NCBI GenBank assembly: GCA_001800135.1
Contig: MGUU01000010.1
Coordinates: forward strand, 273,495-337,494
Source of the DNA: Elusimicrobia bacterium RIFCSPLOWO2_02_FULL_39_32
Lineage (GTDB): Bacteria > Elusimicrobiota > Elusimicrobia > 2-02-FULL-39-32
Direction: 5' to 3'
DNA: 64,000 bases
Within the stretch, counting starts at the first letter, position 1, and each line of letters starts with the position of its first letter. The position numbers and the translations under genes are program-made. Below, one piece after another: positions 4,831 to 61,885 of the stretch. Below the pieces are notes generated by a model. That model was given only the letters and a program-made list of their open reading frames with translations. It was not told the DNA's origin and did no database searches.

Positions 4831-4941
4831 GTTTTTTCGTGACTTCTATAATGCATAAATTAAAAGTGCATAGTTTCAATTTTATTTAATAGTAGTCAAC
4901 TTTGATTTATGAATTTATTAATTTTTAGTACAATTCTAATT

Positions 4942-6357
4942 ATGAAGATCGTTTTTATTAATCCCCCATTTGATATTATTCAAAAAGCATATGGTTCAGC
5001 TCGTAAAGGAACTAAATATGGATATTGGGCTCCTTTTGGGATCGCAGTTCTTGCTGGCATCATAAAGAAATTGGATTGTAAATTTGAATATATTGATTCA
5101 ACAATTTTAGATTATACTCAGCAAGATGTCGTAAACCATGTTATACAATCCCAACCAGACATGATTGGCATCACTGCACAATTGGCCACTCGTGAAGTTG
5201 TAAAACATCTTATTCAGATGATTCGTGAAAAATCTGCAGCTCCAATTTTTTTAGGTGGCACTCTAGCCACCACCTTTGCGGAAAGCGTGATGTTAGAAAA
5301 TCCTGGATTAGACTATGTAGTGATAGGAGAAGCAGAGCAGACTCTTCAAGAATTAATTCTTAAAATAAGAAATAAGGCGGATATCTCAACAGTAAAAGGA
5401 ATCTGTTACAGGAGTGGAGACAAAATTATTAGGACTCCATCGCGACCCATTTTAATGAATTTAGATCTTTTACCACAACCAGATTTTGGAGTATTTGATC
5501 TAAAACGATATATTCCCCTTCCTCTTCAATATAAAAAGAAACCCATCATCGCTTATCTTTCCTCACGCGGTTGTTCTTATGGCCGTTGCACTTTTTGTTT
5601 TGAATCCGGCAGCGCAGCCCAAAAATATCGTCGCCATTCAGTTAAAAGAGTTATTGCAGATATTCAAATGGCTGTAGAAGAACAGGGGGTTAAAGAAGTA
5701 GCTTTTTGGGATGATATTTTTTTAGTTGATGAACCTTGGGTTTTGGAATTTTGTGAACTTCTTCATCAGAATAAAATAGAGATCGCATGGCAATGTTATG
5801 GTTATGCGGGTTCAATGACTAAAAAGATGGTAGATGCTTCTGCAAAATCCGGGTGCTGGAATGTTTATATTGGTTTTGAGTCCGCAACTCAAACTGTCTT
5901 AGACCAAGTAAAAAAAGGGGTAACAGTTGAGCAATTAGCTCAATCCATTGGTTGGGTTAGAGATGCAGGGATGGATGTTCGTGGCTCTTTTATTTTATCC
6001 TTGCCTGGAGAAACTCCTCAAACTGCCATGGAAAGCGTAAAATTTGCAATTAAAAATGATATTACCTACATGCTTTTTCATCCATATTTTCCAGAGTATG
6101 GAACAGAATTATACAGCGAATTAGCTCGAGAAGGTAAAATTATTGATGAATATAAGGGGAGGACCACTGCGCAATATATTCCTGAAGGCTACAAGGATGC
6201 AAAAGAGGTGGAATTCATTATTCGTAAAGCGTATAAAAAATTTTATTTTCGTCCAAGTTATGTGCTTAAACATATTAATAAAATTCGGAGCTGGGATGAT
6301 TTCAAGCAATATTATGAAGCGATGCGATTTGTAGCTGGGATTGCATTTTCTGGTTAG
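4942..6357 (+). CDS. B12-binding-domain radical SAM protein (class B)
   Basis: N-terminal cobalamin-binding-like domain (MKIVFINPP...) followed by a radical SAM core with a cysteine motif (SRGCSYGRCTFCFES). The ORF track starts at 4909; the start is probably Met at 4942. Confidence 0.8.
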   Translation: MKIVFINPPFDIIQKAYGSARKGTKYGYWAPFGIAVLAGIIKKLDCKFEYIDSTILDYTQQDVVNHVIQSQPDMIGITAQLATREVVKHLIQMIREKSAAPIFLGGTLATTFAESVMLENPGLDYVVIGEAEQTLQELILKIRNKADISTVKGICYRSGDKIIRTPSRPILMNLDLLPQPDFGVFDLKRYIPLPLQYKKKPIIAYLSSRGCSYGRCTFCFESGSAAQKYRRHSVKRVIADIQMAVEEQGVKEVAFWDDIFLVDEPWVLEFCELLHQNKIEIAWQCYGYAGSMTKKMVDASAKSGCWNVYIGFESATQTVLDQVKKGVTVEQLAQSIGWVRDAGMDVRGSFILSLPGETPQTAMESVKFAIKNDITYMLFHPYFPEYGTELYSELAREGKIIDEYKGRTTAQYIPEGYKDAKEVEFIIRKAYKKFYFRPSYVLKHINKIRSWDDFKQYYEAMRFVAGIAFSG

Positions 6358-11428: not shown

Positions 11429-12577
11429 CTACCTTTCCTCCAATTCCTTTAACATCTTATTCACCATTTGGGAAACATAATCCACTAAAGAAATCATTTT
11501 TGGATATTCCATCCGCTTTGGCCCTAAAATGCCAAGAACCCCCACTGTTTTATCCGCCAGTTGATAGGTGGATGATATAACGCTTAAATTTTGCAATGCC
11601 TTATTTAGATTTTCCGAACCTATCCTCACATGAACCCGTCCTATTTTTTTTGGTTCCGAATGTTCTGATTTTGTTCGCAAGCGGTCATTTAAATTTTTAG
11701 TTTTAATCTGTTCCTTAGAATTTTGAGATTTTTGATCCTCTAAGATTTCATGCTCTAGGATATTAGTTAAAATCTGCTTTTCTTCGATTACTTTGAGCAG
11801 ATTTTGTAAGTCCGCTGCTCCGGAAAAATCCGGAAGAGAGAGTATGTTGCTTGCTCCTTCAAGGTAGATTTCACCTGAGGAAAATTTTTTAATCTCTTCT
11901 CCTATTTCCCTAGCCAGACTAAAAATTTCTTTAGTTTCTTCTTGTAAGTTTTCTAGACACTCCACCAATTTTAATTTCACGTTTTCTAAGGTAGAGCCTT
12001 GAAAGTTTTGATTGATAATTCTTGCTATTTTACGCAGATGTTCTTTTGGGATTTCTATTTGAGTGTTGATTGTAAAATGTTTAGCCAATCCTGACTCGGT
12101 AATCATGGCGCAAAGAATTCTTTTATTGGTAATGGGAACTAATTCCAAACAAGAAAATATATTTTTTTCCCACTTAGGAGTCATGACAAAACCCGTATAG
12201 TGAGAAAGAGTTGAAAGCATCCTGGAAGTTTGGCTCATAAAATCCTCAACCTCTTTAATTCGGGCTTCATATTCGGTTTGAATTCTTACTTGTTCCTGGA
12301 CCGCCAATCGCTGCATTTCTACAAGCGAATCCACATAGAGCCTATATCCTTTATCTGTTGGGATTCTTCCGGCTGAGGCGTGCGGCTGAGCAATCATCCC
12401 AGACTTTTCCAGTTCAAAAAGAGTATGGCGGATAGAAGCTGAAGAAAGTCCCAAGCGGCTTGTATTAGAGATACTATGAGAACCAACAGGCTTTCCTGTG
12501 CGGATATGCTCATGGATCACATACTGCAGGACTTTTTTCTTTCTTTCTTCGATTTCTTCTTGGTTTAAGGCGCGCAT
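11429..12577 (-). CDS. hrcA: heat-inducible transcription repressor HrcA
   Basis: N-terminal wHTH (LQYVIHEHIRTGKPVGSHSIS) and HrcA C-domain. The ORF track starts at a GTG (12589) that lies inside the CIRCE palindrome; ATG at 12577 (MRALNQ..) is preferred. Confidence 0.85.
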   Translation of the reverse strand: MRALNQEEIEERKKKVLQYVIHEHIRTGKPVGSHSISNTSRLGLSSASIRHTLFELEKSGMIAQPHASAGRIPTDKGYRLYVDSLVEMQRLAVQEQVRIQTEYEARIKEVEDFMSQTSRMLSTLSHYTGFVMTPKWEKNIFSCLELVPITNKRILCAMITESGLAKHFTINTQIEIPKEHLRKIARIINQNFQGSTLENVKLKLVECLENLQEETKEIFSLAREIGEEIKKFSSGEIYLEGASNILSLPDFSGAADLQNLLKVIEEKQILTNILEHEILEDQKSQNSKEQIKTKNLNDRLRTKSEHSEPKKIGRVHVRIGSENLNKALQNLSVISSTYQLADKTVGVLGILGPKRMEYPKMISLVDYVSQMVNKMLKELEER

Positions 12578-12582
12578 ATATA

Positions 12583-12609
12583 TTAGCACTCAATAAATAA
12601 GAGTGCTAA
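12583..12609. promoter_or_regulatory. CIRCE operator (HrcA binding site) TTAGCACTC-N9-GAGTGCTAA
   Basis: Perfect 9-9-9 inverted repeat ttagcactc aataaataa gagtgctaa read directly from the sequence, immediately 5' of hrcA. Confidence 0.9.
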
Positions 12610-12612
12610 TAT

Positions 12613-12641
12613 AATATATCAGCTTAATTTTATTTTGTCAA
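12613..12641 (-). promoter_or_regulatory. putative sigma-A promoter of the hrcA operon (TTGACA-17-TATATT on the minus strand)
   Basis: The reverse complement reads TTGACA aaataaaattaagctga TATATT, followed directly by CIRCE. This is the classic promoter-CIRCE arrangement. Confidence 0.45.
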
Positions 12642-12663
12642 GAACTTATTATTTTGGTACTAT
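12635..12663 (+). promoter_or_regulatory. putative sigma-A promoter of the 893-aa membrane/TPR gene (TTGTCA-17-TACTAT)
   Basis: TTGTCA at 12635-12640 and TACTAT at 12658-12663. Its -35 hexamer overlaps the -35 of the divergent hrcA promoter (palindromic TTGTCAA). Confidence 0.4.
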
Positions 12664-12684
12664 TTTTTAATAAATTTAAAATAT

Positions 12685-15366
12685 ATGGCGAAGAAAAACA
12701 ATAAAGCTAAAAGAGGAATACCTCTTACTCCAAAAGAATTTTTTATGGTTGTTGAGAAAAATAGGACCCTCCTTATCCTTTTTTTTATTATTCTATTTTT
12801 TTCTTTTTATGCTCTATATAAAAGTTATTGGTTTTATATTCCATTTAACGATATTCATAAATTTATTAATTTTGATGTTGTTTACTACAATTTAAAGTTA
12901 CTGTTATCTTTTAAAGGAGGGTATGCCACATCTCTTTGGGCTATTTTAGTTTTTATTTCTATTTCCACTTTTTTCTATTGGTCAGGGAAACTGTTACTCA
13001 AGTGGATCTTAAATTTTAATTTTCCATTTTCTAAATTAGAAATGTTTGCTTGTAGTTGGTTTTTAGGGTCATGGATCTGTGGGATGTTTTGGTTTTTCCT
13101 TGGAACAGTGGGTCTATTTAAAAAATGGATTGCGTTTACGCTCTTTTTCACTGGATTGTTGCTTTTTGTAATTCATCTCAAAAAAAACATTAACAAGGAT
13201 AAGATAATAAATTTATTTAATTCCATTAAATGGAATATGGAATTATTATGGATCACATTTATTATTAGTGTGATTTTTTTATGGGTAAGCCAATGTATTG
13301 CTCCATATAATTACTGGGACACTCTTACGATAGATATGGCTTTACCAGGATATTATGTTGCTGAAGGGAGATTTGTCCCCAATCCTTTTCATATCTATAG
13401 TTATTTCCATCAGAATAATCAACTTTTAATGGTGTGGGTACTCCTTGTAAATTCAAAAGAGGCTGCGTATTTATTAATTTGGGGATTTTTCGTAGTTCTG
13501 CTGTTGTTTGTGTATGGTTGGATTTCACGAATTGCATCCAGGCTTGCAGCGCTTTGTTGTATTAGTATTTTTTTATTTAGTTATCTAGGTCCTTGGTTAG
13601 TGACTTATGTCAAAAACGACTTGCAGTTAGGAATTTTTTTAGTTCTTCAATGGTGGGCTCTATTATTTTCATTTAGAAAATATAGTCAGCAACAATCTGA
13701 TACTATAAATTGGCTTTTTCTTGCAGGTCTATTTTCCGGTGTAGCAATAGGACATAAATTTACCGCTATTCAATCAGTTATAATAACAACAGGAGGAACA
13801 TTTGTTTTTTTCTTTTATAATTCTTCAAAAATTTTTAAGGAAAGAGTATTGGAGTCAGGCAAACTATGTCTAATTTTTGTTTCTGGTTTATTGATCTCAT
13901 GGGGTCCATGGTTGGTTAGAACAGCTCTTCTGACGGGCAATCCAATATACCCATTTTTAAATAAAATTTTTAACGTAAATCCATTATTCCCATGGCATAG
14001 AGATCATCCAGGCACTTATGGTTTAATCCAATTAGGATTTTCTGGATTATTGATATATTTAAGAAATCTCTCTCAATTTAAACCAGTAGGTAGTTTAGGA
14101 AATGCAGCTATATGGTGGGGGCCGAGTATTTGGATCTGTTTTTCCGCTTTTTTTTGTTTTTTTAAATTTTTTGTGAAGGAAATCCGTTGGATTACTGCCA
14201 TTGTTTTATTAAGTTATTTATTTTCTCTTACCTTTACAATTAAACCCCCATACCATATAGGGCCGCTCTTCTTTCTTTTCTGCTGTTTATTTGGATTATC
14301 TTTAGAGGCAACTTGGCAAAATTTAAAATCTAAATTTCTTAAATCTCTCACCATCCTATTAGTTATTCTAAATATAATTAGAGGGATTTCTGTTAGCAAC
14401 ATGCTGCGAATGAATTATTTTTCAAATATGATCATGTTCATAGGATCACCTATTTGGCATTTTATGAGTCATACTCCTGGGGGTGTAGACTTTGCGACAA
14501 TTGATGAAATGGAATGGATGCATTATCTAATTAATAAATATAGTTTTGAGGAAGATAGGGTAATCTTTTTAGGTTCAATACGGCCTTTTGGAATTGAACG
14601 AAGACATTATTGGTCATTTGAATTAGATAAGCAACCCATGCTTTATTTTGCAGAAAAAGCTAAAGATGCTATAGATCTCAAGCATCAACTTTTGCAAGAA
14701 GGATTTAAACATATTATTTATGATCCTATTGAGTGGAAAGCTTGGATCAATAATTATACTGTTAATGATCCTAATCATCATGATTATAAAATAGAACCAG
14801 CTGATCTAACTAAAATAGAAATTTTATTATCGCAACATACTACTGAACGTTTTAGAGTGCCTAGTGGACGATTGATCTGGTACACCATTAAATCTAATCC
14901 TAATGAGTTATTTCAATCCATTTCGTTTGAATTAGAGGATGTCTATAAATATCCATTCCTTTATTTGGAATTGGCAGATGCTTATAGTAATAATGGTGAA
15001 AATGAAAAATCAATACAAATTTTAGAACTTTTGAATCGGCATATATTTCAGAAGAGTCTTGCTCATAGAATTAATGTTTCTTTAGGATTGGCATATTTTA
15101 AAAACAATAAATTTTCGGAAGCCATACCTTATTTAACAAAAGTTATTGAAATCGAACCAAATAATTCTGCAGTATTTGTTTGGCGTTCTAGGGCATATCA
15201 GCAATTAGGCCAAATTGATCTTGCAGTTTTAGATTTAACAAAAGCAATCTCTTTAAATCCTAATAATTCTGATTTGCTAATGGAGAGATCTCAAATATTT
15301 TATAAACAGGGTAAACTGGAAGATTCTAAGAGAGATTTTGAGCAGGCAAAATTACTTAAAGATTAG
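12685..15366 (+). CDS. large polytopic membrane protein (GT-C-like glycosyltransferase architecture) with C-terminal TPR repeats
   Basis: 893 aa with more than 12 predicted TM helices, a YWDTLTID loop motif, a conserved TGNPIYPFL motif and C-terminal TPR repeats (..AYFKNNKFSEAIPYLTKVIEIEPNN..AYQQLGQIDLAV..). Paralogous along most of its length to the 762-aa protein at 16287..18575. Confidence 0.55.
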   Translation: MAKKNNKAKRGIPLTPKEFFMVVEKNRTLLILFFIILFFSFYALYKSYWFYIPFNDIHKFINFDVVYYNLKLLLSFKGGYATSLWAILVFISISTFFYWSGKLLLKWILNFNFPFSKLEMFACSWFLGSWICGMFWFFLGTVGLFKKWIAFTLFFTGLLLFVIHLKKNINKDKIINLFNSIKWNMELLWITFIISVIFLWVSQCIAPYNYWDTLTIDMALPGYYVAEGRFVPNPFHIYSYFHQNNQLLMVWVLLVNSKEAAYLLIWGFFVVLLLFVYGWISRIASRLAALCCISIFLFSYLGPWLVTYVKNDLQLGIFLVLQWWALLFSFRKYSQQQSDTINWLFLAGLFSGVAIGHKFTAIQSVIITTGGTFVFFFYNSSKIFKERVLESGKLCLIFVSGLLISWGPWLVRTALLTGNPIYPFLNKIFNVNPLFPWHRDHPGTYGLIQLGFSGLLIYLRNLSQFKPVGSLGNAAIWWGPSIWICFSAFFCFFKFFVKEIRWITAIVLLSYLFSLTFTIKPPYHIGPLFFLFCCLFGLSLEATWQNLKSKFLKSLTILLVILNIIRGISVSNMLRMNYFSNMIMFIGSPIWHFMSHTPGGVDFATIDEMEWMHYLINKYSFEEDRVIFLGSIRPFGIERRHYWSFELDKQPMLYFAEKAKDAIDLKHQLLQEGFKHIIYDPIEWKAWINNYTVNDPNHHDYKIEPADLTKIEILLSQHTTERFRVPSGRLIWYTIKSNPNELFQSISFELEDVYKYPFLYLELADAYSNNGENEKSIQILELLNRHIFQKSLAHRINVSLGLAYFKNNKFSEAIPYLTKVIEIEPNNSAVFVWRSRAYQQLGQIDLAVLDLTKAISLNPNNSDLLMERSQIFYKQGKLEDSKRDFEQAKLLKD

Positions 15367-16268
15367 AATGAGGGATGATCTAATTTGCGATGAAGAACCA
15401 CCATCAAATCTGCTAGAAGGCCAGTTAACAATATAATCAGGCTGGAGAGTATAAGCATTACATCAAAGCCCCCAATATTTTGATAAACTAACCAATCATA
15501 GATTGTTTTGGTACAACCAGAAAGCAAGACAAAAACAAAAAGAGGTAAAAAAATTCTTAATGGGTTAAAATACATGACGGTTCTAATTACAAGGGAAAAA
15601 TAATTGTAGGTATCTTTAATTGGATGAAATGAGGATGTGCCCCCAGATCTCTTAAAATAATCAATGGGGTGAAAATAGACCCTTTGGTGGTTACAGAGAA
15701 AAGCCAGGGTGATTGTGGATTCCCAAGAGTGTGAATCAGGAAGCAGATAAAAATATTTAAGCGCAATTGATTTTTTAAAAATTCTTAATCCAGAATTTAA
15801 ATCTGGGATTTTTTCTTGAGACAAATAAGAAGCTAATTTTCTAATCAAAAATTTGGCTGGTAACCGTAACCAATAGAATGTCCCTTTTTCTTTAACCCTT
15901 GCTCCGATCACCATATCATAATCATGCTCCAAGATCAGTTGCAACATCTCAAGTATTGGTTTTTGAGGGTAGGTTCCATCCGCATCAGTTGTAACAATGA
16001 TCTCATTTTGAGCAGTTAAAATTCCTGTTTTTCTTCCAGCTCCAACGCCTCTATTTTTTGCATGGCGGACAACTTTTACTCCTTTGCTTTGAGCGATTTT
16101 TGAGGTTTCATCCGTGGAGCCATCGTCAACAACAATAAATTCATATGAAATTTCTGATTCTTTTAAGACTTTTTGAATTTGAACGATTTCCTCTCCAATA
16201 GAGTCTGCTTCATTGTAAGCTGGCAGGATCACACTGATTGAATTCTGTCTTAAAGGTTTTTGATTCAT
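15363..16268 (-). CDS. GT2 polyprenyl-phosphate sugar synthase (GtrB/CsbB/DPM1-like)
   Basis: ISVILPAYNEADSIG...YEFIVVDDGSTDET...TDADG GT-A core, plus two C-terminal TM helices typical of polyprenyl-phosphate glycosyltransferases. Confidence 0.75.
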   Translation of the reverse strand: MNQKPLRQNSISVILPAYNEADSIGEEIVQIQKVLKESEISYEFIVVDDGSTDETSKIAQSKGVKVVRHAKNRGVGAGRKTGILTAQNEIIVTTDADGTYPQKPILEMLQLILEHDYDMVIGARVKEKGTFYWLRLPAKFLIRKLASYLSQEKIPDLNSGLRIFKKSIALKYFYLLPDSHSWESTITLAFLCNHQRVYFHPIDYFKRSGGTSSFHPIKDTYNYFSLVIRTVMYFNPLRIFLPLFVFVLLSGCTKTIYDWLVYQNIGGFDVMLILSSLIILLTGLLADLMVVLHRKLDHPSF

Positions 16269-16286
16269 GTTTATTTATTTTGAAGA

Positions 16287-18575
16287 TTATTTTTTATTCA
16301 GTTGTTCCAATATAAATACGGGGCTGGGTTCTAAATTTTGTTTTGAGTTTTCATTTTTTATTTTTTGAATTTCATAGAGTAAAATCAGACTGTTCCTTTG
16401 GAAAAAACGTTCCGGGATAATTTCTCTATGGCTTTCTTTTACATAGTCATTCCAAAATAATTCAAATATTTTAAGCTCTTCCTCCTTCCATTTTAACATT
16501 TTATAACTGTAAGTGCGACGCGCTTCATTGAAATTTATCAAGATATGGGTAATTCCAGAATTTTGAAAATGTTTTAAGAGCTCATCTCCTGAGTTCGAAT
16601 TTTTTACCCACCCAATCAGAGGATTTTGTCCATGCACATCTGTATAAAGGTAGGGTAATTTTAAGTCATAGGTTTTGGAATCTCCTATAAAAAGAGTGCG
16701 GGTTGTTTTAGACAGATGTTTCTCCATCCAGCGAAACATGACATTAGCCGGATAGGGATTAAGGCCTGGGTGCGTAACCATTTTGTAATCTTCGCGGCTT
16801 TCCCTTCCAGAAAGAACATCGCCTGGATTATAAGAATTTTTTATGATAAAGGCACAGGTCTGTAAATTTTCAGTCAATACTAGAATCACAGGGATTAGAA
16901 AAATTGTTCTTATTAAAAAATTTTTATTTTTTAAAGCAAGATGGAATCCAAGCGCATAAATAAAACAAAGCAAAGGATAACCCTGAAGATGATATCTTGT
17001 GAGGTGGGTAGAATTAAAAGAAGCGATAAAGAAGAAAATAAGAAACAAAAAGATTATTTGGCTCCATTCTTTTTTTAAATATTGAATAGATAAAAGGCTA
17101 ATGGGGAGCAAACTTAAGAAAAGTGGCCCTGGAAAAGAAAGTCCACTTTGATTGCGATCCTTGAATGTTAGTTTCCAAGGTAGTGTCCAATTTTGCCAAG
17201 ATTCAGTAATAAAACGACGATTCTCATTAATAAAAGTTTCCCACTGTTCTGGATCTAAAAAGTAGTTTTGAAAATTAAATTTTTTGAATAAAGCAGTTAG
17301 AAAAGGGAATACTGGATTTCCTGTGTCCCATAAATTTTTTAACAGCCAAGGAGAAATAGTGAGCCCAAAAACTAAAATAAAGAAAAAGCTTTGTCTTAAG
17401 AAATTTTTGTAATTATTTGGATTACGCACAAGAGAAAAAAGGAAAAAACTTAAAAATAACGTTCCTGCCATAATTCCGCCCTGATATTTTGAACCATAGG
17501 CAAATCCACACATAAGAGCGGAGAGAATAACCCATGAAGAAGATTCATCTTGTTGGTTTTGACTTTGGATCCCTCTTTTTTGAATATCTACTGCTAGACA
17601 CAGAGCATAGGCAGAAAAAAATGCAAACAAACAGCTGCTAATATCAATGCCACTTGTCCATAGGTTCATTTGAACCATTGGAACAGAAATGAAAAAAATA
17701 CTAGCAATGAGACCAACCTGAATAGAAAATCCTAGACGTTTTGCAAAAGTTCCAAAACCAAACAGGATTAGAACAGCATTAAACCAATGGATTAATTTTG
17801 GAACCATTTCATCGTGTAAGGCTAGTCCAAATAGATAGAGTGTTTGTAAAATCATTGGAAATTTACTCACTGCTCCAGGAATTCTAACGACCCCTTTTTC
17901 TTGTAAAAAAAGGTTAGGAACTCCTAAATGATAAACCAGGGAATCATAAAAAACTTCTGGGACTAAAGCCATTACAAAACTTACGCTTAAGAATATCCAT
18001 AAAAACAATCTTAAGATAAATGGTTGCGCACTCCCAAAACAGAAGACCGAGATTTCTTTAGTTCCTTCTTTAAGAAAAGTTCTCCCATTGGAATTTTTTA
18101 GAAAATACCAAAAAAAACTTAAGCAACAACTAAACCAAAGAATAATGATTAATGGAACATATAAGAGGCGAAGAGCGCTTAAGAATAAAAAGATGAAGGC
18201 AATCAATGGCTGGCCAATAATTATAGAAAAGATCAACTGCTCTAAGGATGAATTCCATTTAACTTTAAATGGTTGAAGAAAATAGTAACCCAAGGTAAGA
18301 GCGCCTGAAACAATACCTAACCAGACCGCCAGACCTTTAAGATAGAAGAGAAGAATAGAAAGAGTAGGGAAAAAAATCTTTACAGGTAGGAGTGATTCAA
18401 AGTTTCTAATATCTAATGGATATTGCTGAAGGTATTTATAGATTATAAAGTAAGACCAGAGAATTCCGGCTCCAATCCACCAATTGGAGTATTGGTTTAG
18501 GAGTAAATCTTCATTTTCTTTTTTTAAAGGCGAATTAGATTTTGAGAATTTTGAATGTTTTATTGACTCAGCCAT
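16287..18575 (-). CDS. large polytopic membrane protein (GT-C-like), paralog of 12685..15366 without the TPR tail
   Basis: 762 aa and multi-TM. It shares the FYDSLVYH loop motif, the TGNPVFPFL motif and a C-terminal extracytoplasmic domain with the 893-aa protein. Confidence 0.55.
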   Translation of the reverse strand: MAESIKHSKFSKSNSPLKKENEDLLLNQYSNWWIGAGILWSYFIIYKYLQQYPLDIRNFESLLPVKIFFPTLSILLFYLKGLAVWLGIVSGALTLGYYFLQPFKVKWNSSLEQLIFSIIIGQPLIAFIFLFLSALRLLYVPLIIILWFSCCLSFFWYFLKNSNGRTFLKEGTKEISVFCFGSAQPFILRLFLWIFLSVSFVMALVPEVFYDSLVYHLGVPNLFLQEKGVVRIPGAVSKFPMILQTLYLFGLALHDEMVPKLIHWFNAVLILFGFGTFAKRLGFSIQVGLIASIFFISVPMVQMNLWTSGIDISSCLFAFFSAYALCLAVDIQKRGIQSQNQQDESSSWVILSALMCGFAYGSKYQGGIMAGTLFLSFFLFSLVRNPNNYKNFLRQSFFFILVFGLTISPWLLKNLWDTGNPVFPFLTALFKKFNFQNYFLDPEQWETFINENRRFITESWQNWTLPWKLTFKDRNQSGLSFPGPLFLSLLPISLLSIQYLKKEWSQIIFLFLIFFFIASFNSTHLTRYHLQGYPLLCFIYALGFHLALKNKNFLIRTIFLIPVILVLTENLQTCAFIIKNSYNPGDVLSGRESREDYKMVTHPGLNPYPANVMFRWMEKHLSKTTRTLFIGDSKTYDLKLPYLYTDVHGQNPLIGWVKNSNSGDELLKHFQNSGITHILINFNEARRTYSYKMLKWKEEELKIFELFWNDYVKESHREIIPERFFQRNSLILLYEIQKIKNENSKQNLEPSPVFILEQLNKK

Positions 18576-18587: not shown

Positions 18588-19472
18588 TTAATTAATAATT
18601 TTAAATCTAGTGAACGGCCAGTAGAGCAGCCATGCTCTGCCTTTTAGTTGTTTTTCTGAGAGTGGTCCCCAAAATCTGGAATCAAAGGATCCGTCTCGGT
18701 TGTCTCCCATGACAAAAAAATGTTTTTCCGGCACTTTGATAGGACCAAAATTGTCTCGGATCGCTTCTGCAGGTAAATAAATGAAATCTCCGTTTTCCCA
18801 ATTTTTTTGGTATTCCGCATCATCTTTATAAATTTTTGCCTTTGGATAAATCGTTGGATGCAAAAAATGTCCGTGAATATCATCCATTTTTTTGCCGTTA
18901 ATGAACAGCATCTTATTTTTTATCTCTAGGTTGTCTCCGGGGAGGCCTATGGCTCTTTTTATAAAATCTTTTTTTATCCCTTTTTTTCTTTCTTCTTCAG
19001 ACAGGGCATTGAGAGGACACAAAAAAACAACCACATCAAATCTTTTGACTTGTTTAAAATCCCACAATTTTTTAGATGTAAATGGAATTTGCGTGCCATA
19101 AATAAATTTGTTCACAAACAGATGATCTCCAATTTCTAGGGTTGGCCGCATGGAACCAGAGGGGATTTTAAAAGCTTGGATTAAGAATGCCATGATTAAA
19201 AATGCCAATAGAACTGCAGATACGCCAGTGTCAGACCATTCAATCGCTTCCCTAGTCCATTTTTCAATTTTGACCCCAGAGCTTTTTTTTCTAATCCATC
19301 GAAAAAGAAAAGAGGCGGCTAGGAATGTGGAGAAAACATAAATGACTTTAGTTTCCATGGGTTCTTCTTGGCAAGCAAAAAATTTCCATCCTATAATCCC
19401 TAACCCGCAAAAGGATAGTAGCCAGAAAAGTAATATTAGGAAAGATTCATTATTATTTTCAGTTGATTTCAT
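18588..19472 (-). CDS. lepB: signal peptidase I
   Basis: S26 catalytic boxes IPSGSMRPTL and VMGDNRDGSFDSRFWG, with two N-terminal TM segments. Confidence 0.85.
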   Translation of the reverse strand: MKSTENNNESFLILLFWLLSFCGLGIIGWKFFACQEEPMETKVIYVFSTFLAASFLFRWIRKKSSGVKIEKWTREAIEWSDTGVSAVLLAFLIMAFLIQAFKIPSGSMRPTLEIGDHLFVNKFIYGTQIPFTSKKLWDFKQVKRFDVVVFLCPLNALSEEERKKGIKKDFIKRAIGLPGDNLEIKNKMLFINGKKMDDIHGHFLHPTIYPKAKIYKDDAEYQKNWENGDFIYLPAEAIRDNFGPIKVPEKHFFVMGDNRDGSFDSRFWGPLSEKQLKGRAWLLYWPFTRFKIIN

Positions 19473-19589
19473 TTAATGGTCCTGTAGGCACTCTTTTTCA
19501 TCTCGGTTCTTATTTTATAATGCAATACTTGAGCTCAATCCTCATTCTTGAAGTAGTCATAGAAAATTTTTATTTTGTAAATCTCCATT

Positions 19590-21419
19590 CTATGATTTTT
19601 TGGATAATTGTAGGATAGAAAGAAAAGCTTCATTAGGAATTTCTACATTTCCGATCTGCTTCATTTTTCTTTTTCCCTCTTTTTGTTTCTCTAGCAGCTT
19701 TCTTTTGCGCGAAATATCCCCCCCATAACATTTAGCGATCACGTCTTTTCGAAAGGCCTTAATGGTTTCTCTAGCGATGATTTTGTTATGCACTTGCGCT
19801 TGAATGGCGATTTCAAAAAGATGTTTTGGGATCAATTCTCTTAATTTTTCTACAAGAGCTTTTCCCTGGGAATAGGCTTTGTCCTTGTGCACAATAGAGC
19901 TAAAAGCATCTACCGCTTCATGGTGTATGAGAATTTCTAATTTTACCAGATCATCTTTCCTGTAACCAACAGGTTCATAATCAAAGGAGGCGTATCCTTT
20001 AGTTAAAGATTTTAACGCGTCATGAAAGTCAATGATAATTTCAGCAAGAGGCATATGATACCTTAAAAGCACGCGCTCCGGAGTTAGATAACGCATGTCC
20101 TTAAATTCCCCTCTTCTTTCTTTTGCCATTTGCATGACAGGGCCTACATATTCTGCTGGCAGGAGTAGTATAGTGTTAACAATCGGTTCCCCGATGGACT
20201 CAATTTGATCATAGGAGGGAAATTTAGAAGGAGAATCAATTTCTACAGAATCGTTCTCCTGACCTGTACCCTGTTTTGTTTTTATTTGATAGATAACATT
20301 AGGGGAAGTTAAAAGCACATCTATTGAAAATTCTCTTAGCAATCGTTCTTTAATGATTTCCAAATGAAGAAGGCCAAGAAATCCGCATCGGTATCCAAAA
20401 CCTAAAGCATTACTTGATTCTGGTTGGAATTGAAAGGAAGAATCGGACAGATGTAGTTTTTCTAAGGCATTTTTCAGGGTTTCGTATTCAGAAGGGTTGG
20501 GTGGATAAAGCCCGGCAAATACAAAAGGTTTGGTAGGCCGATAGCCCGGAAGAGATTTGCTTGTTGGGTTAAATTTCTCCGTAAGCGTATCTCCAATTTG
20601 AATAAGATGAATATCTTTTAATCCAGTTACCACATAACCTACCTCGCCTGTCATAATTTGATTTGATTTAGCGGGTAGGGGAGTTAGATATCCCACTTCT
20701 TCAGGAGTCAGCTCAATGCCATTGGAGAGAAAAAGAAGGGTTTTTTTAGGTTGGATAAGACCAGAAAAAACCCGAACAAAGATGATCACTCCTTTGTAAG
20801 GATCGTAAAGAGAATCAAATACAAGCGCTGAAAGAGGCTCTTTAACTTCTCCTTTTGGCGGAGGGATCAACTCTACAATCATATCTAAGAGTTCTTCAAT
20901 CCCTTTGCCTTCTTTTGCGCTTATAGCAATTGCTTTTTTTTCAATTTTTAAAATATCTTTTATTTGCCGTGCTGTTCCTTCAATATCAGCTTGAGGTAAA
21001 TCAATCTTATTAATCACTGGAATAAGTTCTAATCCGCTTTCCTGGGCAAGCAAGGTGTTGGCAAGAGTTTGGGCTTCTACCCCTTGAGAAGCATCTACAA
21101 CTAAAAGAGCTCCTTCGCAAGCTGCTAGGGAACGGCTCACTTCATAGGAAAAATCAACATGGCCAGGGGTATCAATTAAATTCAGAATAAATTGATTCTT
21201 GTAGATCATTCGCACCGCTTTTGCTTTGATTGTAATGCCTCGTTCCCGTTCTAAATCCATTCTGTCCAGCACCTGCGCTTGCATCTGCCGCATGGGTATG
21301 GTTCCAGTTTTTTCTAAGAGACGATCCGCCAAAGTAGATTTGCCATGGTCAATGTGAGCAATGATACAGAAGTTTCTGATATTGATAAGCGGGGCTTGGG
21401 TTTGAATTGTTTCTGACAT
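19590..21419 (-). CDS. lepA: translation elongation factor 4 (LepA)
   Basis: GTPase G1 (AHIDHGKST) and the LepA-specific C-terminal domain. Classic lepA-lepB synteny. Confidence 0.95.
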   Translation of the reverse strand: MSETIQTQAPLINIRNFCIIAHIDHGKSTLADRLLEKTGTIPMRQMQAQVLDRMDLERERGITIKAKAVRMIYKNQFILNLIDTPGHVDFSYEVSRSLAACEGALLVVDASQGVEAQTLANTLLAQESGLELIPVINKIDLPQADIEGTARQIKDILKIEKKAIAISAKEGKGIEELLDMIVELIPPPKGEVKEPLSALVFDSLYDPYKGVIIFVRVFSGLIQPKKTLLFLSNGIELTPEEVGYLTPLPAKSNQIMTGEVGYVVTGLKDIHLIQIGDTLTEKFNPTSKSLPGYRPTKPFVFAGLYPPNPSEYETLKNALEKLHLSDSSFQFQPESSNALGFGYRCGFLGLLHLEIIKERLLREFSIDVLLTSPNVIYQIKTKQGTGQENDSVEIDSPSKFPSYDQIESIGEPIVNTILLLPAEYVGPVMQMAKERRGEFKDMRYLTPERVLLRYHMPLAEIIIDFHDALKSLTKGYASFDYEPVGYRKDDLVKLEILIHHEAVDAFSSIVHKDKAYSQGKALVEKLRELIPKHLFEIAIQAQVHNKIIARETIKAFRKDVIAKCYGGDISRKRKLLEKQKEGKRKMKQIGNVEIPNEAFLSILQLSKKS

Positions 21420-39338: not shown

Positions 39339-40417
39339 TGCACTGTCCCTAAAATCTTTTTTATAAATTCATCCTCACCCTCGGACCACTTTACTTTTAT
39401 TTTTAATATGGCGGCCGGAAAATCTGCGGGGAGTTTAACCGCATCCTTTTCAGTTGTAATTAAGTGGCAATGATTTTGTTTGGCAAGCTCTAACATTTCT
39501 TTTAGTTCGATTGCAGTATAATAATGATGGTCAGGGAAGCTTTTAAAGAAAATAATTTTTCCTTCAAGATCTGTTAGCATTTTTTTAAAATGATTAGGAT
39601 TGGCTATGGCGGAAAATGCAAAGAGTTTTCTTTGATTTAACCAATGGGGCAAGAATGTTTGGTTTGATATAGGTTCTTTAATTTCTTCCACCTCATAAGA
39701 GAAAACCGCGTTTGGACAATTTTTTAAAAATTGAAAGGTTTCTTGGAAAACTTTTTTTTCAGTCTCAACCTCTGATTTTAAGACTATAAAATCCGCTCTT
39801 TTTAGGGATTGGATTGGCTCTCTTAAAAAACCTCTAGGAAAAATTTTTGAGGTCTTTAAAATTTTTTCATCACAACAAACAATATCTAAATCCCGATAAA
39901 TTTTTCTATGCTGAAAACCATCATCTAAAATAAGCGCATCCACCTTAAACTGTTGGACCGCAAAAGCTCCTATTTTAAATCGGTCTGGCCCTACAAGAAT
40001 GGGCGCCCCATGACATTTTTGAGCCAAGAGAACTGGCTCATCTCCGGCTGTTTCCGGGGTTTCAAAAATTTTATTTCCATCTGAAACCACCAGCATTCTT
40101 TGAGAGCTGTTTTTTCTTTTATAGCCGCGGGAAAGAATCGCGACTTTTTTATTTTGTTGAAGCAAGATTTGGGCAGCCAGACAACTAAGGCTTGTCTTGC
40201 CAGTGCCGCCTAAAGTTAAATTTCCAATGGAGATCACAGGAACTGAAACTTTTTTTATATGGAAAATATTTTTGTCATAGCTTTTGTTCCTTAAAGAGAG
40301 AATCATACTATAAAAAAAAGAGAGAATGCTCAAAAATTGGCAGATCATTTTTTTATGCAAAGGAGGATTTTTAAGAATGATTAAAGACTCCCAAAAATTT
40401 ACAAAATTAAAAATCAT
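39335..40417 (-). CDS. lpxK: tetraacyldisaccharide 4'-kinase
   Basis: VISIGNLTLGGTGKTSL P-loop and LSRGY motif. Confidence 0.85.
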   Translation of the reverse strand: MIFNFVNFWESLIILKNPPLHKKMICQFLSILSFFYSMILSLRNKSYDKNIFHIKKVSVPVISIGNLTLGGTGKTSLSCLAAQILLQQNKKVAILSRGYKRKNSSQRMLVVSDGNKIFETPETAGDEPVLLAQKCHGAPILVGPDRFKIGAFAVQQFKVDALILDDGFQHRKIYRDLDIVCCDEKILKTSKIFPRGFLREPIQSLKRADFIVLKSEVETEKKVFQETFQFLKNCPNAVFSYEVEEIKEPISNQTFLPHWLNQRKLFAFSAIANPNHFKKMLTDLEGKIIFFKSFPDHHYYTAIELKEMLELAKQNHCHLITTEKDAVKLPADFPAAILKIKVKWSEGEDEFIKKILGTVH

Positions 40418-41421
40418 GATGGTTTAAGGATAGCATTTAATTTATTTAAGACCATCTCTGGGGTTAAGTTTTCCATGCATTCATGGTGATATGGGCAGTG
40501 GTTTCGTTCACAGGCCAAACATGGGAGTTGTTCGTTTCTAACATAGAAATGAGGAAATTTATTTGGATTAATAGAATGTGGATTGGTTGGACCAAAGATG
40601 GTAAGAGTTGGTGTCCCAACTGCCATGGCTATTTTTTGCGGACCATTGTCATTAGCAATCACACAAGAACATTGTTTTAGAAAAGCTGCCATTTGAATTA
40701 AAGAATCTGTCTCAATGATGATGAATTTTTCAGAATTTTTATTAATTTCTTTCTCTAATATTTCTTTTTCATTGGGTCCGCACAAAATCAAAATTTTATA
40801 CCCAACTTGTTTGATTAGCATAAGAGCAGTTTGTTGAAAAAATTCATTTTTCCATGCTCGAATGGGGTGTCGATGAAATGGCAGGAGTCCAATGACCTGA
40901 TCTTTTTCACCTATCCCAAGCATCCTTAAACTCTGTTCAGCTTTTTTAAGCTCTTGGGACGGTAGTTTAAGATCCCAAACCCAGGAACTCTCTTTTTTAG
41001 GCAGGATCGCATTAACTAGATCAATTTTTTGTTCCACAATAAATTTATTACGATCTGTTTTTACGCAAGTTGTATAAATCATTTTCCTTGTTAAGGGACC
41101 CTCAAAACCTATTTTTAAGGGAGCGCCGGAGAGGTGAGTTAAAAGCAAAGACCTTCCATTGGCATGAAAGTCTAAAACGCAATCATATTTATTTTTTCGG
41201 ATTTTAAAAATCCATCGCCATGCTTCTTTTTTATGATAAACAAGCGTTTCATGGATAGTTGGATTTAATCGAGTTAGTTCATCAGCGGGAGGTTCTACTA
41301 AAAAATCAATCTGCGCATTTGGAAAATTTCTTTTTAAAAGATCGAGCACAGGTAAGGTAAACACCACATCTCCAATCCTGCGGAGTTGAATGATTAAGAT
41401 TTTTTTAATGATTTGCTCCAT
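40414..41421 (-). CDS. GT9 ADP-heptose:LPS heptosyltransferase
   Basis: ILIIQLRRIGDVVFTLPVL N-terminal GT9 signature and a C-terminal GT-B domain. Confidence 0.8.
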   Translation of the reverse strand: MEQIIKKILIIQLRRIGDVVFTLPVLDLLKRNFPNAQIDFLVEPPADELTRLNPTIHETLVYHKKEAWRWIFKIRKNKYDCVLDFHANGRSLLLTHLSGAPLKIGFEGPLTRKMIYTTCVKTDRNKFIVEQKIDLVNAILPKKESSWVWDLKLPSQELKKAEQSLRMLGIGEKDQVIGLLPFHRHPIRAWKNEFFQQTALMLIKQVGYKILILCGPNEKEILEKEINKNSEKFIIIETDSLIQMAAFLKQCSCVIANDNGPQKIAMAVGTPTLTIFGPTNPHSINPNKFPHFYVRNEQLPCLACERNHCPYHHECMENLTPEMVLNKLNAILKPS

Positions 41422-43262
41422 AAAGAGAGTACGATCATTGGCCAGGCTAAAGCAATTTGTTCATCGCTTTGTGTCTGGGACATTGAATTTTTAAGATTTT
41501 GAATTGTTTTTTTATTGAAAATCGGATTTGAGTCAAAAATTGAATCCTCTAAACTTGTTTGAATAAAATCTTTTTTAAAACTGCGCACCCAGTGAGCTAA
41601 AGGCAGAATAAAGCCATGTTTTTTTCTCCAAGCGATACTCCTAGGAAGAAACCTTGTCGCGATTTTTCTTAAGATATATTTGCCTTTAAAGAATTTTATT
41701 TTTTGGCTGGATGGAATTTTCCATGCGAGTTCTACGATCCGATGGTCTAAATAGGGAGGTCTGGCTTCCAGGGATTCGCTCATGCTGGCCATATCCACTT
41801 TCATTAATAAACGTTCTGGCAGAGCTGTGGAGCTTTCTAACTTAAGGATTTCATTTAAAAGTTGAGGATTTTGATGGTTCAATAGAGAAGGAGTAAGCAT
41901 TTTAAGATACCCTGAATTTTTCTGGCTGCTTTCACTATTTTCAAACAGGGATTCAATAATCTCTGATGAAAAATCCTGATTTAAATCAAACCAATTTAAA
42001 GGTGTGATCCAGGGGATGGTTTGAAAAGCTTGACCTTTCCCAAATTTTTTTGCGATAAAACTAAAAGGTTTTTGAAAAAATTTTGGTGATTTTAGGATCC
42101 ATTCTGAAAGCAGCAGAGCTTTATAGCGGTTGTATCCGGCAAAAAGTTCGTCTCCACCTTCTCCTGTGAGCGTAACTTTCACCTCTTCGCGAGCAAACCG
42201 GGAGAGAAGCGCGGTTGGCAGGATTGTAGGATCTGCCACAGGTTCATTCATTTTTGATAAATATTTTTCTGCTTGGGCAAGATCATTTTCAGTTAAGAAT
42301 AATTCATGATGTTCAGTGCCCAAAATTTTAGCAACAGTTCTTGCGTATTTAGATTCATCTACGCCGGTTCCTTTTTCAAAGCCAATAGAAAATGTTTTAA
42401 TTTTTTTAGCTGAGTTTTTTACCATGAGGGCTGTAATCAGGCTTGAGTCCACACCCCCGCTTAAAAAAGCGCCTAAGGGCACATCGCTTTGCATTTGGAG
42501 TTTTACGCTTTCATTTAAAAGATCAAAAAGTTCATTCTCAAAAGTTTCCTCATCTTTTTTTAAAGGGTCAAGAGCCGCGTTTAAATTCCAATAAGCTTGA
42601 TCCTTTATTTTTCCTTCTTTAAAAGTAAGAAAATGACCTGGGATCAGTTTGCGCACGTTTTTTAAAAGCGTGTATGGTGCTGGGACAAAGCGAAAAGAAA
42701 AAAAATCTTGGAGAGCTCTAGAGTCCAGTTCAAAAGGGACTTGGCCGCAAGCAAGCAATGATTTTAGTTCGGAAGAGAAAACAATTTTTTTTGAATCAAG
42801 AAAATAGTAGAGAGGTTTTATGCCAATCCTGTCCCTGGCAAGCAGCAGTTCATTTGTCTTATTGTTCCAGAGCGCAAAAGCAAACATCCCATTCAGTTTT
42901 TCTAACGCTTTTTCATTAATTTCAGAAAATAGATGCAGCAATACTTCTGTGTCGCTCTGGGTGAGGAATGTGTGCTCAAGATTTACACATTCTTTTTTTA
43001 GCTCTTTAAAATTATAAATTTCTCCGTTAAAGACTAGGGTGAGCTCTTGGTATTGCATGGGCTGATGGCCATTGGCTAAATCAATAATAGAAAGTCTTCT
43101 AAAGCCAAGGCCAATTTTAGATTGGGAGGAAGAATGAGGATTGGAAATAAAGAATCCTTCTTCGTCAGGCCCGCGGTGACTAAGCATTCCTGCCATTGAT
43201 TTAATGGTTTCAGGATTAACAGGCTGGCCATTAAAATTTAAAATTCCGCATATTCCACACAT
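41394..43262 (-). CDS. asparagine synthase (glutamine-hydrolysing) family amidotransferase, embedded in LPS cluster
   Basis: N-terminal MCGI nucleophile, GATase-2 domain, and SGGVDSS PP-loop synthetase domain. Confidence 0.85.
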   Translation of the reverse strand: MCGICGILNFNGQPVNPETIKSMAGMLSHRGPDEEGFFISNPHSSSQSKIGLGFRRLSIIDLANGHQPMQYQELTLVFNGEIYNFKELKKECVNLEHTFLTQSDTEVLLHLFSEINEKALEKLNGMFAFALWNNKTNELLLARDRIGIKPLYYFLDSKKIVFSSELKSLLACGQVPFELDSRALQDFFSFRFVPAPYTLLKNVRKLIPGHFLTFKEGKIKDQAYWNLNAALDPLKKDEETFENELFDLLNESVKLQMQSDVPLGAFLSGGVDSSLITALMVKNSAKKIKTFSIGFEKGTGVDESKYARTVAKILGTEHHELFLTENDLAQAEKYLSKMNEPVADPTILPTALLSRFAREEVKVTLTGEGGDELFAGYNRYKALLLSEWILKSPKFFQKPFSFIAKKFGKGQAFQTIPWITPLNWFDLNQDFSSEIIESLFENSESSQKNSGYLKMLTPSLLNHQNPQLLNEILKLESSTALPERLLMKVDMASMSESLEARPPYLDHRIVELAWKIPSSQKIKFFKGKYILRKIATRFLPRSIAWRKKHGFILPLAHWVRSFKKDFIQTSLEDSIFDSNPIFNKKTIQNLKNSMSQTQSDEQIALAWPMIVLSLWSKSLKKS

Positions 43263-43335: not shown

Positions 43336-43346
43336 AAGCATAAATT
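43336..43346. repeat. AAGCATAAATT element overlapping the GT4 stop codon, upstream of the asnB-like gene
   Basis: gagcgcttattAAGCATAAATTaaat. Confidence 0.6.
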
Positions 43347-44448
43347 AAATATTCGTCCTTTGTTTTAAAGCAGATTGATAAAGTTGCAGCGTATGATCCA
43401 CCATCACTTTGCAAGAAGCATGTTCTCTAACCCAGTCCCGACCTTTTTTTGCGCATTCCTTTGCCTGAATTTCATTGGCAAGACAAAACAAAATTTTTTC
43501 AGCTAGTTTTTCCGAATCATTTACTGGCGCAAGGAAACCTGTAATGCCGTCTTGCACTATTTCCTGATTGCCGCTCACGTTCGAAGCTACAACTGGGATT
43601 CCTAATGCTAAAGATTCCCTTAAAGCTCCAGAGAGCCCCTCTCCTTCAATGCTGGAATTTACGCTTAAATTCAAGATGGAGAGAATTTCCGGAATATCTT
43701 TTCTAAAGCCTAAGAGCCTAACTGATTTAGATATCCCTAGTTCTTGCGTTTTTGGAAAAAGAGATTCTGTCTCTTTTCCTGCAAGTAAAAAGAAAATTTT
43801 AGGATTTTTTTTAAGACAAAGTTTTGCTGCTTCCAGAAAAACATGTTGCCCTTTCCAAAGGGAAAAATTAGCTATTTTCCCCACTATTTTACAATCATTT
43901 GGAATCTTTAATTCCTCTTTTAATTTTTGGTTCAGAGAGCAATTAATAAATTTTTCTTGGTTAAAAGCGCTGTAAACCACTTCTATTTTTTCTGGTTTAA
44001 CTCCGCCTTCAATCATGGTTTCTTTTACAGCTTTACTGACCACAGAATAACGATCAATTCTTTTGGAGCGATATTTCCATTTACTAAAAGGGTTAGCTCT
44101 TAAGGAAAAAGAGACGCGTCGGGAGACAATAAAACTAGGGGAAAGATTAAGGCTCAACGCAAGTAAGCTGATGGCATGAGCTGTGGGGTGATGGGCATGC
44201 ACAATCTCTGGCTGATTGTGTTTAAGAAGATGATAGAGACGACAGGCTGCTGCCAGATCATAGTCCTGAAACATGGATAGATGCTCGATATGGATTGGAA
44301 TGGTTTTTAGCTTTGGAATGAGTTCTGAAGTGGGAGGACAAACAAGAATGTTTTGGTGATTTCTTTTATGGAGCTCTTGAATTAAAAGTGAAATCTGTTC
44401 CATGCCTCCGGACCAGCCGATCGCATTGGTGATATGTAGAATTTTCAA
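43345..44448 (-). CDS. GT4 glycosyltransferase
   Basis: GT-B fold with N-terminal MKILHITN..GG and a C-terminal E-X7-E-like region. Confidence 0.75.
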   Translation of the reverse strand: MKILHITNAIGWSGGMEQISLLIQELHKRNHQNILVCPPTSELIPKLKTIPIHIEHLSMFQDYDLAAACRLYHLLKHNQPEIVHAHHPTAHAISLLALSLNLSPSFIVSRRVSFSLRANPFSKWKYRSKRIDRYSVVSKAVKETMIEGGVKPEKIEVVYSAFNQEKFINCSLNQKLKEELKIPNDCKIVGKIANFSLWKGQHVFLEAAKLCLKKNPKIFFLLAGKETESLFPKTQELGISKSVRLLGFRKDIPEILSILNLSVNSSIEGEGLSGALRESLALGIPVVASNVSGNQEIVQDGITGFLAPVNDSEKLAEKILFCLANEIQAKECAKKGRDWVREHASCKVMVDHTLQLYQSALKQRTNI

Positions 44449-55628: not shown

Positions 55629-55637
55629 GTTTCGGGA

Positions 55638-56780: not shown

Positions 56781-56798
56781 GGGTAAACTTTTTTTAGG

Positions 56799-58322: not shown

Positions 58323-58332
58323 AGTCTTTAAA

Positions 58333-60881: not shown

Positions 60882-60924
60882 AACAGTTACAACGTCAGGC
60901 GATAAAATTGAGAGATTTTTAGAA

Positions 60925-61854: not shown

Positions 61855-61885
61855 AGTGGCACCTTTTTTTCACTGTGTTAATCCT

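Follow-up and report, generated by a model that had tools for sequence, protein, structure and literature searches.

A probable periplasmic glycosylation module in Elusimicrobia, combining a GtrB/ArnC-type donor synthase with two paralogous ArnT/PMT-like glycosyltransferases

The window analysed here, a 64,000-nucleotide stretch of contig MGUU01000010.1 of the uncultured Elusimicrobia bacterium RIFCSPLOWO2_02_FULL_39_32, contains three adjacent genes whose family assignments and modelled structures make it probable that they form a periplasmic glycosylation module, dependent on a polyprenyl-phosphate-linked sugar and of the general Gtr/Arn/Rgt type. Gene A (positions 12685..15366 of the window, + strand) encodes an 893-aa protein with a C-terminal tail of tetratricopeptide repeats (TPRs), and gene C (16287..18575, −) a 762-aa protein that we regard as the conserved core transferase of the module; both are ArnT/PMT-like glycosyltransferases (GTs) of the GT-C fold. 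Between them lies a gene for a family 2 glycosyltransferase (GT2; 15363..16268, −, 301 aa), a GtrB/DPMS/ArnC/AglJ-like candidate polyprenyl-phosphate sugar synthase. The module is a divergent and uncharacterised representative of a familiar type of system, in which a GtrB/ArnC-type donor synthase is combined with ArnT/PMT-like GT-C enzymes. An earlier note on this DNA had placed the three open reading frames (ORFs) between the hrcA operon and lepBA. All three are indeed intact, with hrcA-grpE-dnaK on one side and lepB, lepA and ptsI on the other; lepB and lepA (18588..21419, −) share the strand of C and directly precede it, with a gap of 12 bp.

In the proposed mechanism, the GT2 would move one sugar from a nucleotide sugar onto undecaprenyl phosphate at the cytoplasmic face of the membrane. 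The lipid-linked sugar would then be flipped, presumably by a protein not linked to the module, and on the periplasmic side A and C would hand it on to acceptors of the envelope. The computed basis of this reading consists of family and fold assignments, residue conservation and gene linkage, from which we infer the identity of the donor, its flipping, the roles of single residues, the topology and the acceptors. That A and C would use a polyprenyl-phosphate-linked donor is suggested by the conserved adjacency of GT-C genes to a GtrB/ArnC-like GT2.

By sequence comparison, the paralogy of A and C extends over the whole of both proteins. BLASTP aligns them at E = 2e-12 with 23% identity over ~400 aa, and hhalign, comparing the profiles of the two ortholog sets, gives a probability of 99.6 and E = 1.1e-23 over 617 columns (A 78–743, C 77–739). 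This alignment runs to about residue 740 in both proteins, and hence the homology takes in the C-terminal domain. Model helices and hydropathy together indicate ~15 membrane helices in each protein. The paralogy claimed in the earlier note, as well as its count of more than 12 transmembrane helices in each large protein, is thus borne out.

The models of both proteins are of high confidence (C, AlphaFold, pLDDT 88.1 and pTM 0.91; A, AF2, pLDDT 86.1 and pTM 0.87) and have a multi-span membrane GT-C fold. Foldseek comparisons of both models agree with this fold; for the membrane part of A the matches are STT3A, ArnT (TM-score to target 0.53) and PglB. Since no Pfam family directly matches the membrane part of A or C, one might suppose that the large proteins are transporters or other non-glycosyltransferase membrane proteins, the case that the earlier note named as refuting its reading. 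As far as computation can tell, this supposition is rejected, because the significant fold matches are all GT-C enzymes, with transporters appearing only at a probability <0.1 and a TM-score of ~0.1; the sequence-profile link to ArnT, PMT and PMT_2 likewise argues against it, and we give it a negligible chance.

The profile link of A and C to known GT-C families is transitive only. Neither protein itself matches PMT_2 (PF13231) at E ≤ 1, nor PMT (PF02366). Of the 34 aligned homologs, 16 match PMT_2 and 10 match PMT; one or the other of these domains is present in homologs that C matches at E = 1e-20 to 1e-54, and some relatives are named 'glycosyltransferase family 39 protein' or 'ArnT family glycosyltransferase' by NCBI. 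The C-family profile finds ArnT (5EZM) among PDB sequences at E = 3.2e-7; the A-family profile alone finds no match there. ArnT, and not PMT, is both the best fold match and the sole significant sequence-profile match. Taken with the models, these sequence results support the assignment of A and C to the ArnT/PMT branch of GT-C, and by sequence and fold their nearest relative is ArnT/PMT_2. HMM searches and structure prediction, the checks proposed in the earlier note, therefore agree in placing the large proteins among GT-C enzymes, with the invariant Asp just after the first transmembrane helix of the core. The note had also likened the pair to TMTC/PMT-type or YfhO-type transferases working with a polyprenyl-phosphate-sugar donor enzyme. 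The idea of GT-C enzymes with such a donor enzyme is supported. The likeness to TMTC and YfhO is not, because DUF1736, the TMTC hallmark, gives no match in A or C, and the YfhO profile (PF09586; E ≤ 1) matches neither these two proteins nor any of the 34 homologs.

The broader family to which C belongs is large, with 1,411 clusters at 50% identity that match the C-family profile at E ≤ 1e-30; among the best 150 clusters most align over the full length. Part of this family carries a newer Pfam label, the uncharacterised family DUF8201 (PF26626). Precomputed DUF8201 matches exist for the C orthologs P0008, P0010, P0011, P0013 and P0015 (orthologs at 46–48% identity) and for the distant homologs P0016, P0022 and P0221. 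The exact copy of C in the databases (P0001) has no precomputed DUF8201 match.

Conservation singles out a few residues that are common to both paralog families and to their PMT_2-bearing relatives, namely an Asp, a Lys in G-x-K-[YF], and the Trp and Pro of PW...GNP-x-[FY]-P. The Asp is located eight residues after the first transmembrane helix of the core (helix 186–203). In A it is D212 (codon 13318..13320, +, in YWDTL), in the first extracytoplasmic loop and invariant in 35 aligned sequences; in C it is D211 (codon 17943..17945, −, in FYDSLVYH), invariant in 34 sequences, as are P206, Y215 and H216. The Lys is K358 in A (codon 13756..13758, +, in GHKF), invariant in the A alignment, and K363 in C (codon 17487..17489, −), which is invariant as well. 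R527 is invariant within the C family. The motif TGNPIYPFL of A (13933..13959, +) marks the start of a large extracytoplasmic loop, with P420 and P423 invariant and G418 and N419 nearly so; its counterpart in C is TGNPVFPFL (17298..17324, −; codon checked). The motifs quoted in the earlier note are present at the expected codons, as NYWDTLTID / VFYDSLVYH and TGNPIYPFL / TGNPVFPFL, and recur family-wide.

To judge by conservation, by topology and by what is known of ArnT, the invariant Asp (D211 in C, D212 in A) would be the catalytic base. The carrier phosphate would be held by the invariant Lys (K363 in C, K358 in A) together with an Arg or Lys of a periplasmic loop further along the chain (R527 in C). 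By the helix order of the models and the positive-inside rule, the conserved Asp, Lys, Trp and Pro, R527, the C-terminal domain and the TPRs of A are all predicted to lie on the periplasmic side.

Both proteins begin with a four-helix membrane extension that, according to the models, is a feature which canonical GT-C enzymes do not have. In A it comprises aa 1–184 (12685..13236, +), with about four extra transmembrane helices before the canonical first helix of the GT-C core (model helices 27–46, 78–109, 117–141 and 147–168). In C it comprises aa 1–183 (18027..18575, −), with about four extra transmembrane helices and an amphipathic helix (model helices 17–51, 72–100, 110–134, 140–159 and 162–180, in agreement with hydropathy). 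The putative catalytic Asp of A and C comes only after ~210 residues (211 in A), compared to 39 in the canonical relatives P0070 and P0072. A fused GtrA-like flippase was considered as an explanation of the extension and found no support: 22 fragments gave no Pfam match at E ≤ 10, and there was no PDB profile match.

At the other end, an alpha/beta domain follows the membrane part in both proteins, at aa ~600–745 in A (14482..14919, +), where it has no Pfam match, and at aa 584–762 in C (16290..16826, −), where it has many invariant polar residues. The secondary-structure elements of the two domains come in the same order in both models. The homologous extracytoplasmic C-terminal domain described in the earlier note is therefore upheld by the models and by the hhalign alignment that passes through it, its periplasmic side being a prediction. 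The TPR tail of A (aa 757–893; 14953..15363, +) forms four helix pairs in the model. Pfam matches TPR_8, TPR_2 and TPR_1 at aa ~760–890 (E = 1e-16 to 5e-18), in line with the repeats read there previously from the sequence, and Foldseek matches the tail to consensus TPR and to MamA. The alpha/beta domain, together with the four TPRs in A, is predicted to be periplasmic and might engage the acceptor or a partner. The tail is present only in A and P0062 and absent in three of the five A orthologs. A distant protein combining DUF8201 with TPRs (P0221; L022 6001–8529) is found within a BatA-BatD-type operon, beside a protein with a type IX secretion system (T9SS) sorting tail, which indicates that this GT-C family bears C-terminal TPR tails elsewhere too, in other lineages and other contexts.

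The enzyme between the two large proteins is, by family, supported as a polyprenyl-phosphate glycosyltransferase of the GtrB/DPMS/ArnC-like kind. Its GT-A domain matches PF00535 at E = 1e-29, with a catalytic domain at aa 9–225 and the acidic motifs VVDDGSTD and TDADG. Two hydrophobic transmembrane segments follow at aa 231–257 and 273–291, a region into which the ArnC and AglJ alignments extend. The best PDB matches are GtrB (5EKP), the Dol-P-Man synthase PfDPMS of Pyrococcus (5MLZ) and ArnC (9HWJ), all of them polyprenyl-phosphate glycosyltransferases. The prior description of a GtrB/DPM1-like GT2 with C-terminal membrane anchors is hence accurate. Among NCBIfam models the best is AglJ-like (full-length E = 5e-35), followed by PpgS, a haloarchaeal Dol-P-hexose transferase and ArnC. 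The equivalog cut-offs of these models were not reached (AglJ 121 bits vs 325, PpgS 85 vs 370, ArnC 52 vs 529), and therefore the sugar cannot be named.

The gene neighbourhood links C and the GT2 more firmly than it links either to A. The order lepA, lepB, C, GT2, variable slot, hrcA, grpE, dnaK is found in every sufficiently long Elusimicrobia locus, at C identities of 46–89%. The spacing between lepB and C is 3–12 bp in the window and in L001, L002, L003 and L004, where it was read; the other Elusimicrobia loci have the same gene order. One Elusimicrobia metagenome-assembled genome with the gene order of the window has identities of 89% for C, 89% for the GT2 and 96% for A, and proteins identical to those of the module occur in public metagenome data (P0001 and P0061). 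The slot between GT2 and hrcA differs from locus to locus. It holds A on the opposite strand in the window and in L001/L006, A on the same strand in L002, a B12-radical-SAM gene and a short-chain dehydrogenase/reductase (SDR) epimerase-like gene in L004/L005/L008, and in L010 an insert of similar size whose content was not read; it is empty in L003, L007 and L011. These contents indicate that the conserved unit is lepB-C-GT2 and that A is an accessory. The trio presented as one module in the earlier note is consequently not the conserved unit: what is kept together is lepA-lepB-C-GT2-[variable]-hrcA, and A is rare. It is probable that lepA, lepB, C and the GT2 gene share a common operon, and C and the GT2 are probably a constitutive, conserved core that is co-transcribed with lepA-lepB. 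In the window, the stop codons of the convergent A and GT2 genes overlap at 15363–15366 (…GATTAGAATGA…) without an intergenic terminator, and so the 3' ends of the two transcripts may overlap.

An alternative explanation might be that the GT2 and the GT-C enzymes are functionally unrelated neighbours, with the GT2 an ordinary glycan-building GT-A enzyme and the GT-C donor made elsewhere. The GT2 is, after all, below every NCBIfam equivalog cut-off, and the A orthologs in L013, L015 and L016 have no adjacent GT2. Yet the adjacency of C and GT2 is kept down to 46% identity, and the pairing recurs for distant homologs in unrelated contexts: among family members at ~28% identity or less, a GT2 gene adjoins in four of the five contexts read (L017, L018, L019 and L023, not L022), and the GT2 of L017, a 62% ortholog of the one in the window, is still upstream of hrcA. 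Moreover, the GT2 is membrane-anchored like the polyprenyl-phosphate glycosyltransferases that are its best solved matches. We therefore consider a chance association very unlikely and retain the reading of a donor synthase that serves the GT-C enzymes.

Some of the relatives have sugar-modifying genes next to the pair. Beside its GT-C and GT2 genes, L023 has genes for a DegT aminotransferase, for a GFO/IDH/MocA oxidoreductase and for a hexapeptide acetyltransferase, a gene set with Arn-like logic for an amino sugar. Epimerase and oxidoreductase genes stand beside the GT2/GT-C pair in L017, and L017 and L023 are both arranged as in Arn operons. Altogether, such neighbours occur in L004 (11148–13342), L017 (2470–6034 and 10164–12698) and L023 (4907–11233) and include B12-binding radical SAM, SDR epimerase-like, GFO/IDH/MocA oxidoreductase, DegT aminotransferase and hexapeptide acetyltransferase genes; none is found beside the module in the window. 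They suggest modified (amino) sugar donors in the lineages of L004, L017 and L023. The B12-radical-SAM gene of the window (4909..6357) was rejected as a relocated partner of the radical SAM genes of L004 and L017, with which it shares only 23–25% identity. HpnJ/HpnA-like names for the accessory genes of L004 were not interpreted either, as the matches are far below the cut-offs.

Gene A is a rare accessory paralog that would share the donor of C. Two protein searches, one of them without the TPR tail, yielded only five A orthologs and one fragment. A metagenome scan for further A contexts returned just a known contig (L020, identical to L013), so that the link to lipopolysaccharide (LPS) described here stays at one locus. 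That locus, L016, is the sole evidence bearing on an acceptor. Its A ortholog P0062, which has the TPRs and is 44% identical to A (48% over aa 1–750), is the sixth gene of an operon consisting of a small ORF, a DUF374-WaaA fusion, GT9, GT4, GT9 and A. Gene for gene, this operon is orthologous, at 42–58% identity, to the LPS inner-core operon of the window (54582..61013, −), with its 232-aa ORF, DUF374-WaaA, HepII-like GT9, GT4 and GT9, in which NCBIfam recognises a Kdo transferase and heptosyltransferases. This operon is a candidate acceptor pathway for A. The presence of an A ortholog in a waaA-heptosyltransferase operon suggests that the acceptor of A is LPS core or lipid A, and we put at about an even chance the likeliest role of A, the decoration of the LPS inner core or lipid A. 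The earlier note had the module outside the LPS cluster. Its position between hrcA and lepB is as stated there, but the A ortholog within the LPS-core operon of a relative speaks against a module unconnected to LPS.

The LPS operon of the window directly follows secD-secF on the same strand (54582–63337, −). It encodes a Kdo transferase of 665 aa with an N-terminal DUF374 and a heptosyltransferase II-like protein of 507 aa, about 160 of which form an N-terminal extension. A second glycan cluster occupies 39335–46496 (−), with an O-antigen-ligase-like Wzy_C protein (44449..45729), an asparagine-synthase-like amidotransferase (41394..43262), a GT9-like gene (40414..41421) and a GT4-like gene (43345..44448).

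For C, LPS or lipid A is the leading candidate among the acceptors, although short of an even chance, followed by exported proteins and by another glycan or lipid, both of which we hold to be possible and somewhat less likely. Exported proteins are the subject of a rival explanation, in which C, and A by way of its TPRs, would carry out protein O-glycosylation of the PMT/TMTC type on Ser/Thr residues of proteins emerging from the Sec translocon, with C acting alongside the signal peptidase LepB. Elusimicrobia are a diderm phylum in which, to our knowledge, no protein glycosylation has been described. The actinobacterial Pmt works with Sec-exported substrates, and the narrow gap between lepB and C, in a gene order that is the same in every Elusimicrobia locus, might reflect such a coupling. 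The rival explanation also has in its favour that A bears predicted periplasmic TPRs, as TMTC enzymes do, and that relatives match PF02366 and are named GT39. Against this, lepA-lepB is a housekeeping operon, and hence the adjacency of C may reflect only a gene order inherited within one phylum. The hallmarks of PMT and TMTC are absent as well. There is no Pfam match to the beta-trefoil MIR domain in A or C, nor a beta-rich loop insertion in the models; the Asp-Glu dipeptide of PMT loop 1 is replaced by Y-D-S in C and W-D-T in A (family consensus D-[STA]); and the DUF1736 of TMTC is absent, with four TPRs in A and none in C where TMTC enzymes have a long array. The match of both sequence profile and fold to ArnT rather than PMT, the LPS-core operon as the one informative context of A, and the three A orthologs without a TPR tail further argue against O-glycosylation. 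On balance we regard it as rather unlikely.

Two further ideas are more specific: that lepB and C are functionally coupled, C being an O-glycosyltransferase linked to Sec and signal peptidase, and that the N-terminal extension is a built-in translocase for the polyprenyl-phosphate sugar, replacing a GtrA-type flippase. The support for these ideas consists of gene order and of the lack of a recognised flippase gene, and that either of them holds seems to us distinctly improbable.

Several observations weigh against a periplasmic glycosylation module that depends on a lipid-linked sugar. At E ≤ 1, Pfam and NCBIfam gave no match for C, nor for A outside its TPRs, and the assignment of the membrane parts therefore went via homologs, profiles and structure. 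The neighbours of the GT2 in the window include no sugar-nucleotide genes, and thus its donor cannot be named. No GtrA, SMR or Wzx-like flippase was recognised among the small multi-transmembrane ORFs of the 64 kb and the larger ORFs scanned, just as the earlier note had seen no GtrA-like flippase nearby. The periplasmic siting of the conserved residues rests on the helix order of the models and on the positive-inside rule. Finally, the LPS link of A comes from one of five contexts, and the others (beside groESL, after nadC) are uninformative. Apart from unrelated membrane proteins, the search for a flippase yielded a DedA/VTT membrane protein (51812–52453, +; PF09335, E = 1e-16), the sole candidate lipid-carrier translocase recognised in the window; the DedA/VTT family is implicated in undecaprenyl-phosphate translocation.

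The pairing of a lipid-linked donor synthase with a GT-C enzyme is the hallmark of three-component systems (PMC11127046). Of these, the Gtr system of O-antigen glucosylation (flippase GtrA, GtrB and the GT-C Gtr*) resembles the module in its donor enzyme, GtrB 5EKP being the best solved match of the GT2. It differs in its flippase, since the window has no recognised GtrA, SMR or MATE protein and the N-terminal extensions have no detectable similarity to GtrA. Furthermore, the GT-C enzymes of the module are ArnT/PMT-like rather than Gtr*-like, and the module is chromosomal and linked to housekeeping genes, not prophage-borne.

In the Arn pathway, which supplies lipid A with aminoarabinose, the GT2 enzyme ArnC loads a sugar onto undecaprenyl phosphate and the GT-C enzyme ArnT transfers it in the periplasm (PMC4402001). 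ArnC and ArnT (GT83; PDB 5EZM/5F15), which occur with ArnE/F, share the scheme of GT2 plus GT-C with the module, and ArnC is among the top three structures of the GT2. In contrast to Arn, there are no arnA, arnB, arnD, arnE or arnF genes beside the module, nor does the window have a recognised ORF of the SMR type. Compared to ArnT, A and C have ~150 extra N-terminal residues with four transmembrane helices and a different, larger C-terminal domain, and they lack a direct PMT_2 match.

The Rgt system of Rhizobium and Mesorhizobium is closest in logic, because there one donor synthase, the bactoprenyl-phosphate-sugar synthase RgtE, serves several paralogous GT-C enzymes, RgtA, RgtB, RgtD and RgtF, that act on Kdo or lipid A (PMC7663294, PMC4402001). 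Similarly, the module has one GT2 between two paralogous GT-C enzymes, and an A ortholog belongs to a waaA-heptosyltransferase operon. This is an analogy of logic and not family membership, and no genes for UDP-galacturonic acid (UDP-GalA) were seen. The protein O-mannosyltransferases PMT (GT39) and TMTC (GT105), the latter with a TPR array on the lumenal side (PMC7801869), resemble the module in that relatives match PF02366 and that A has a TPR array. They differ in their MIR domain, DE dipeptide and DUF1736, none of which the module has, and the TPRs number only four and are confined to two of the five A orthologs.

Genes A and hrcA diverge from a shared intergenic region of 95 bp, in which a promoter-like site for hrcA is combined with a perfect CIRCE operator (12583..12641, −). 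The operator, at 12583–12609, reads TTAGCACTC-N9-GAGTGCTAA and is located just downstream of the strong promoter-like site at 12613–12641 (minus strand; TTGACA, 17 nt, TATATT). The same CIRCE element occurs in L001/L006, L003 and L007. Since the listed GTG start of hrcA (12589) would lie inside CIRCE, the ATG at 12577..12575 (MRALNQ...) is a likelier start. In two unrelated contexts, genes of the A family diverge from chaperone operons under CIRCE control, hrcA-grpE-dnaK in the window (12590–12684) and groES-groEL in L013, where the intergenic region (6731–7000) has CIRCE-like sites at 6775–6801 (1 mismatch) and 6837–6863 (3 mismatches). This divergence may be due to chance or to shared heat-shock control.

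Our results do not change any concept: the mechanism is the established scheme of a lipid-linked donor and a GT-C enzyme, and would not surprise a specialist. They are of use for the annotation of GT-C enzymes and for the study of Elusimicrobia envelopes. For the large, uncharacterised ArnT/PMT-like branch of GT-C (~1,400 clusters, partly DUF8201), they offer a first functional frame. Within Elusimicrobia they provide a lead, a GT2/GT-C pair in the lepA-lepB operon with an accessory paralog tied to an LPS inner-core operon. If the link to LPS is true, it would describe the decoration of LPS at the periplasmic face in a phylum about whose envelope chemistry next to nothing is known.

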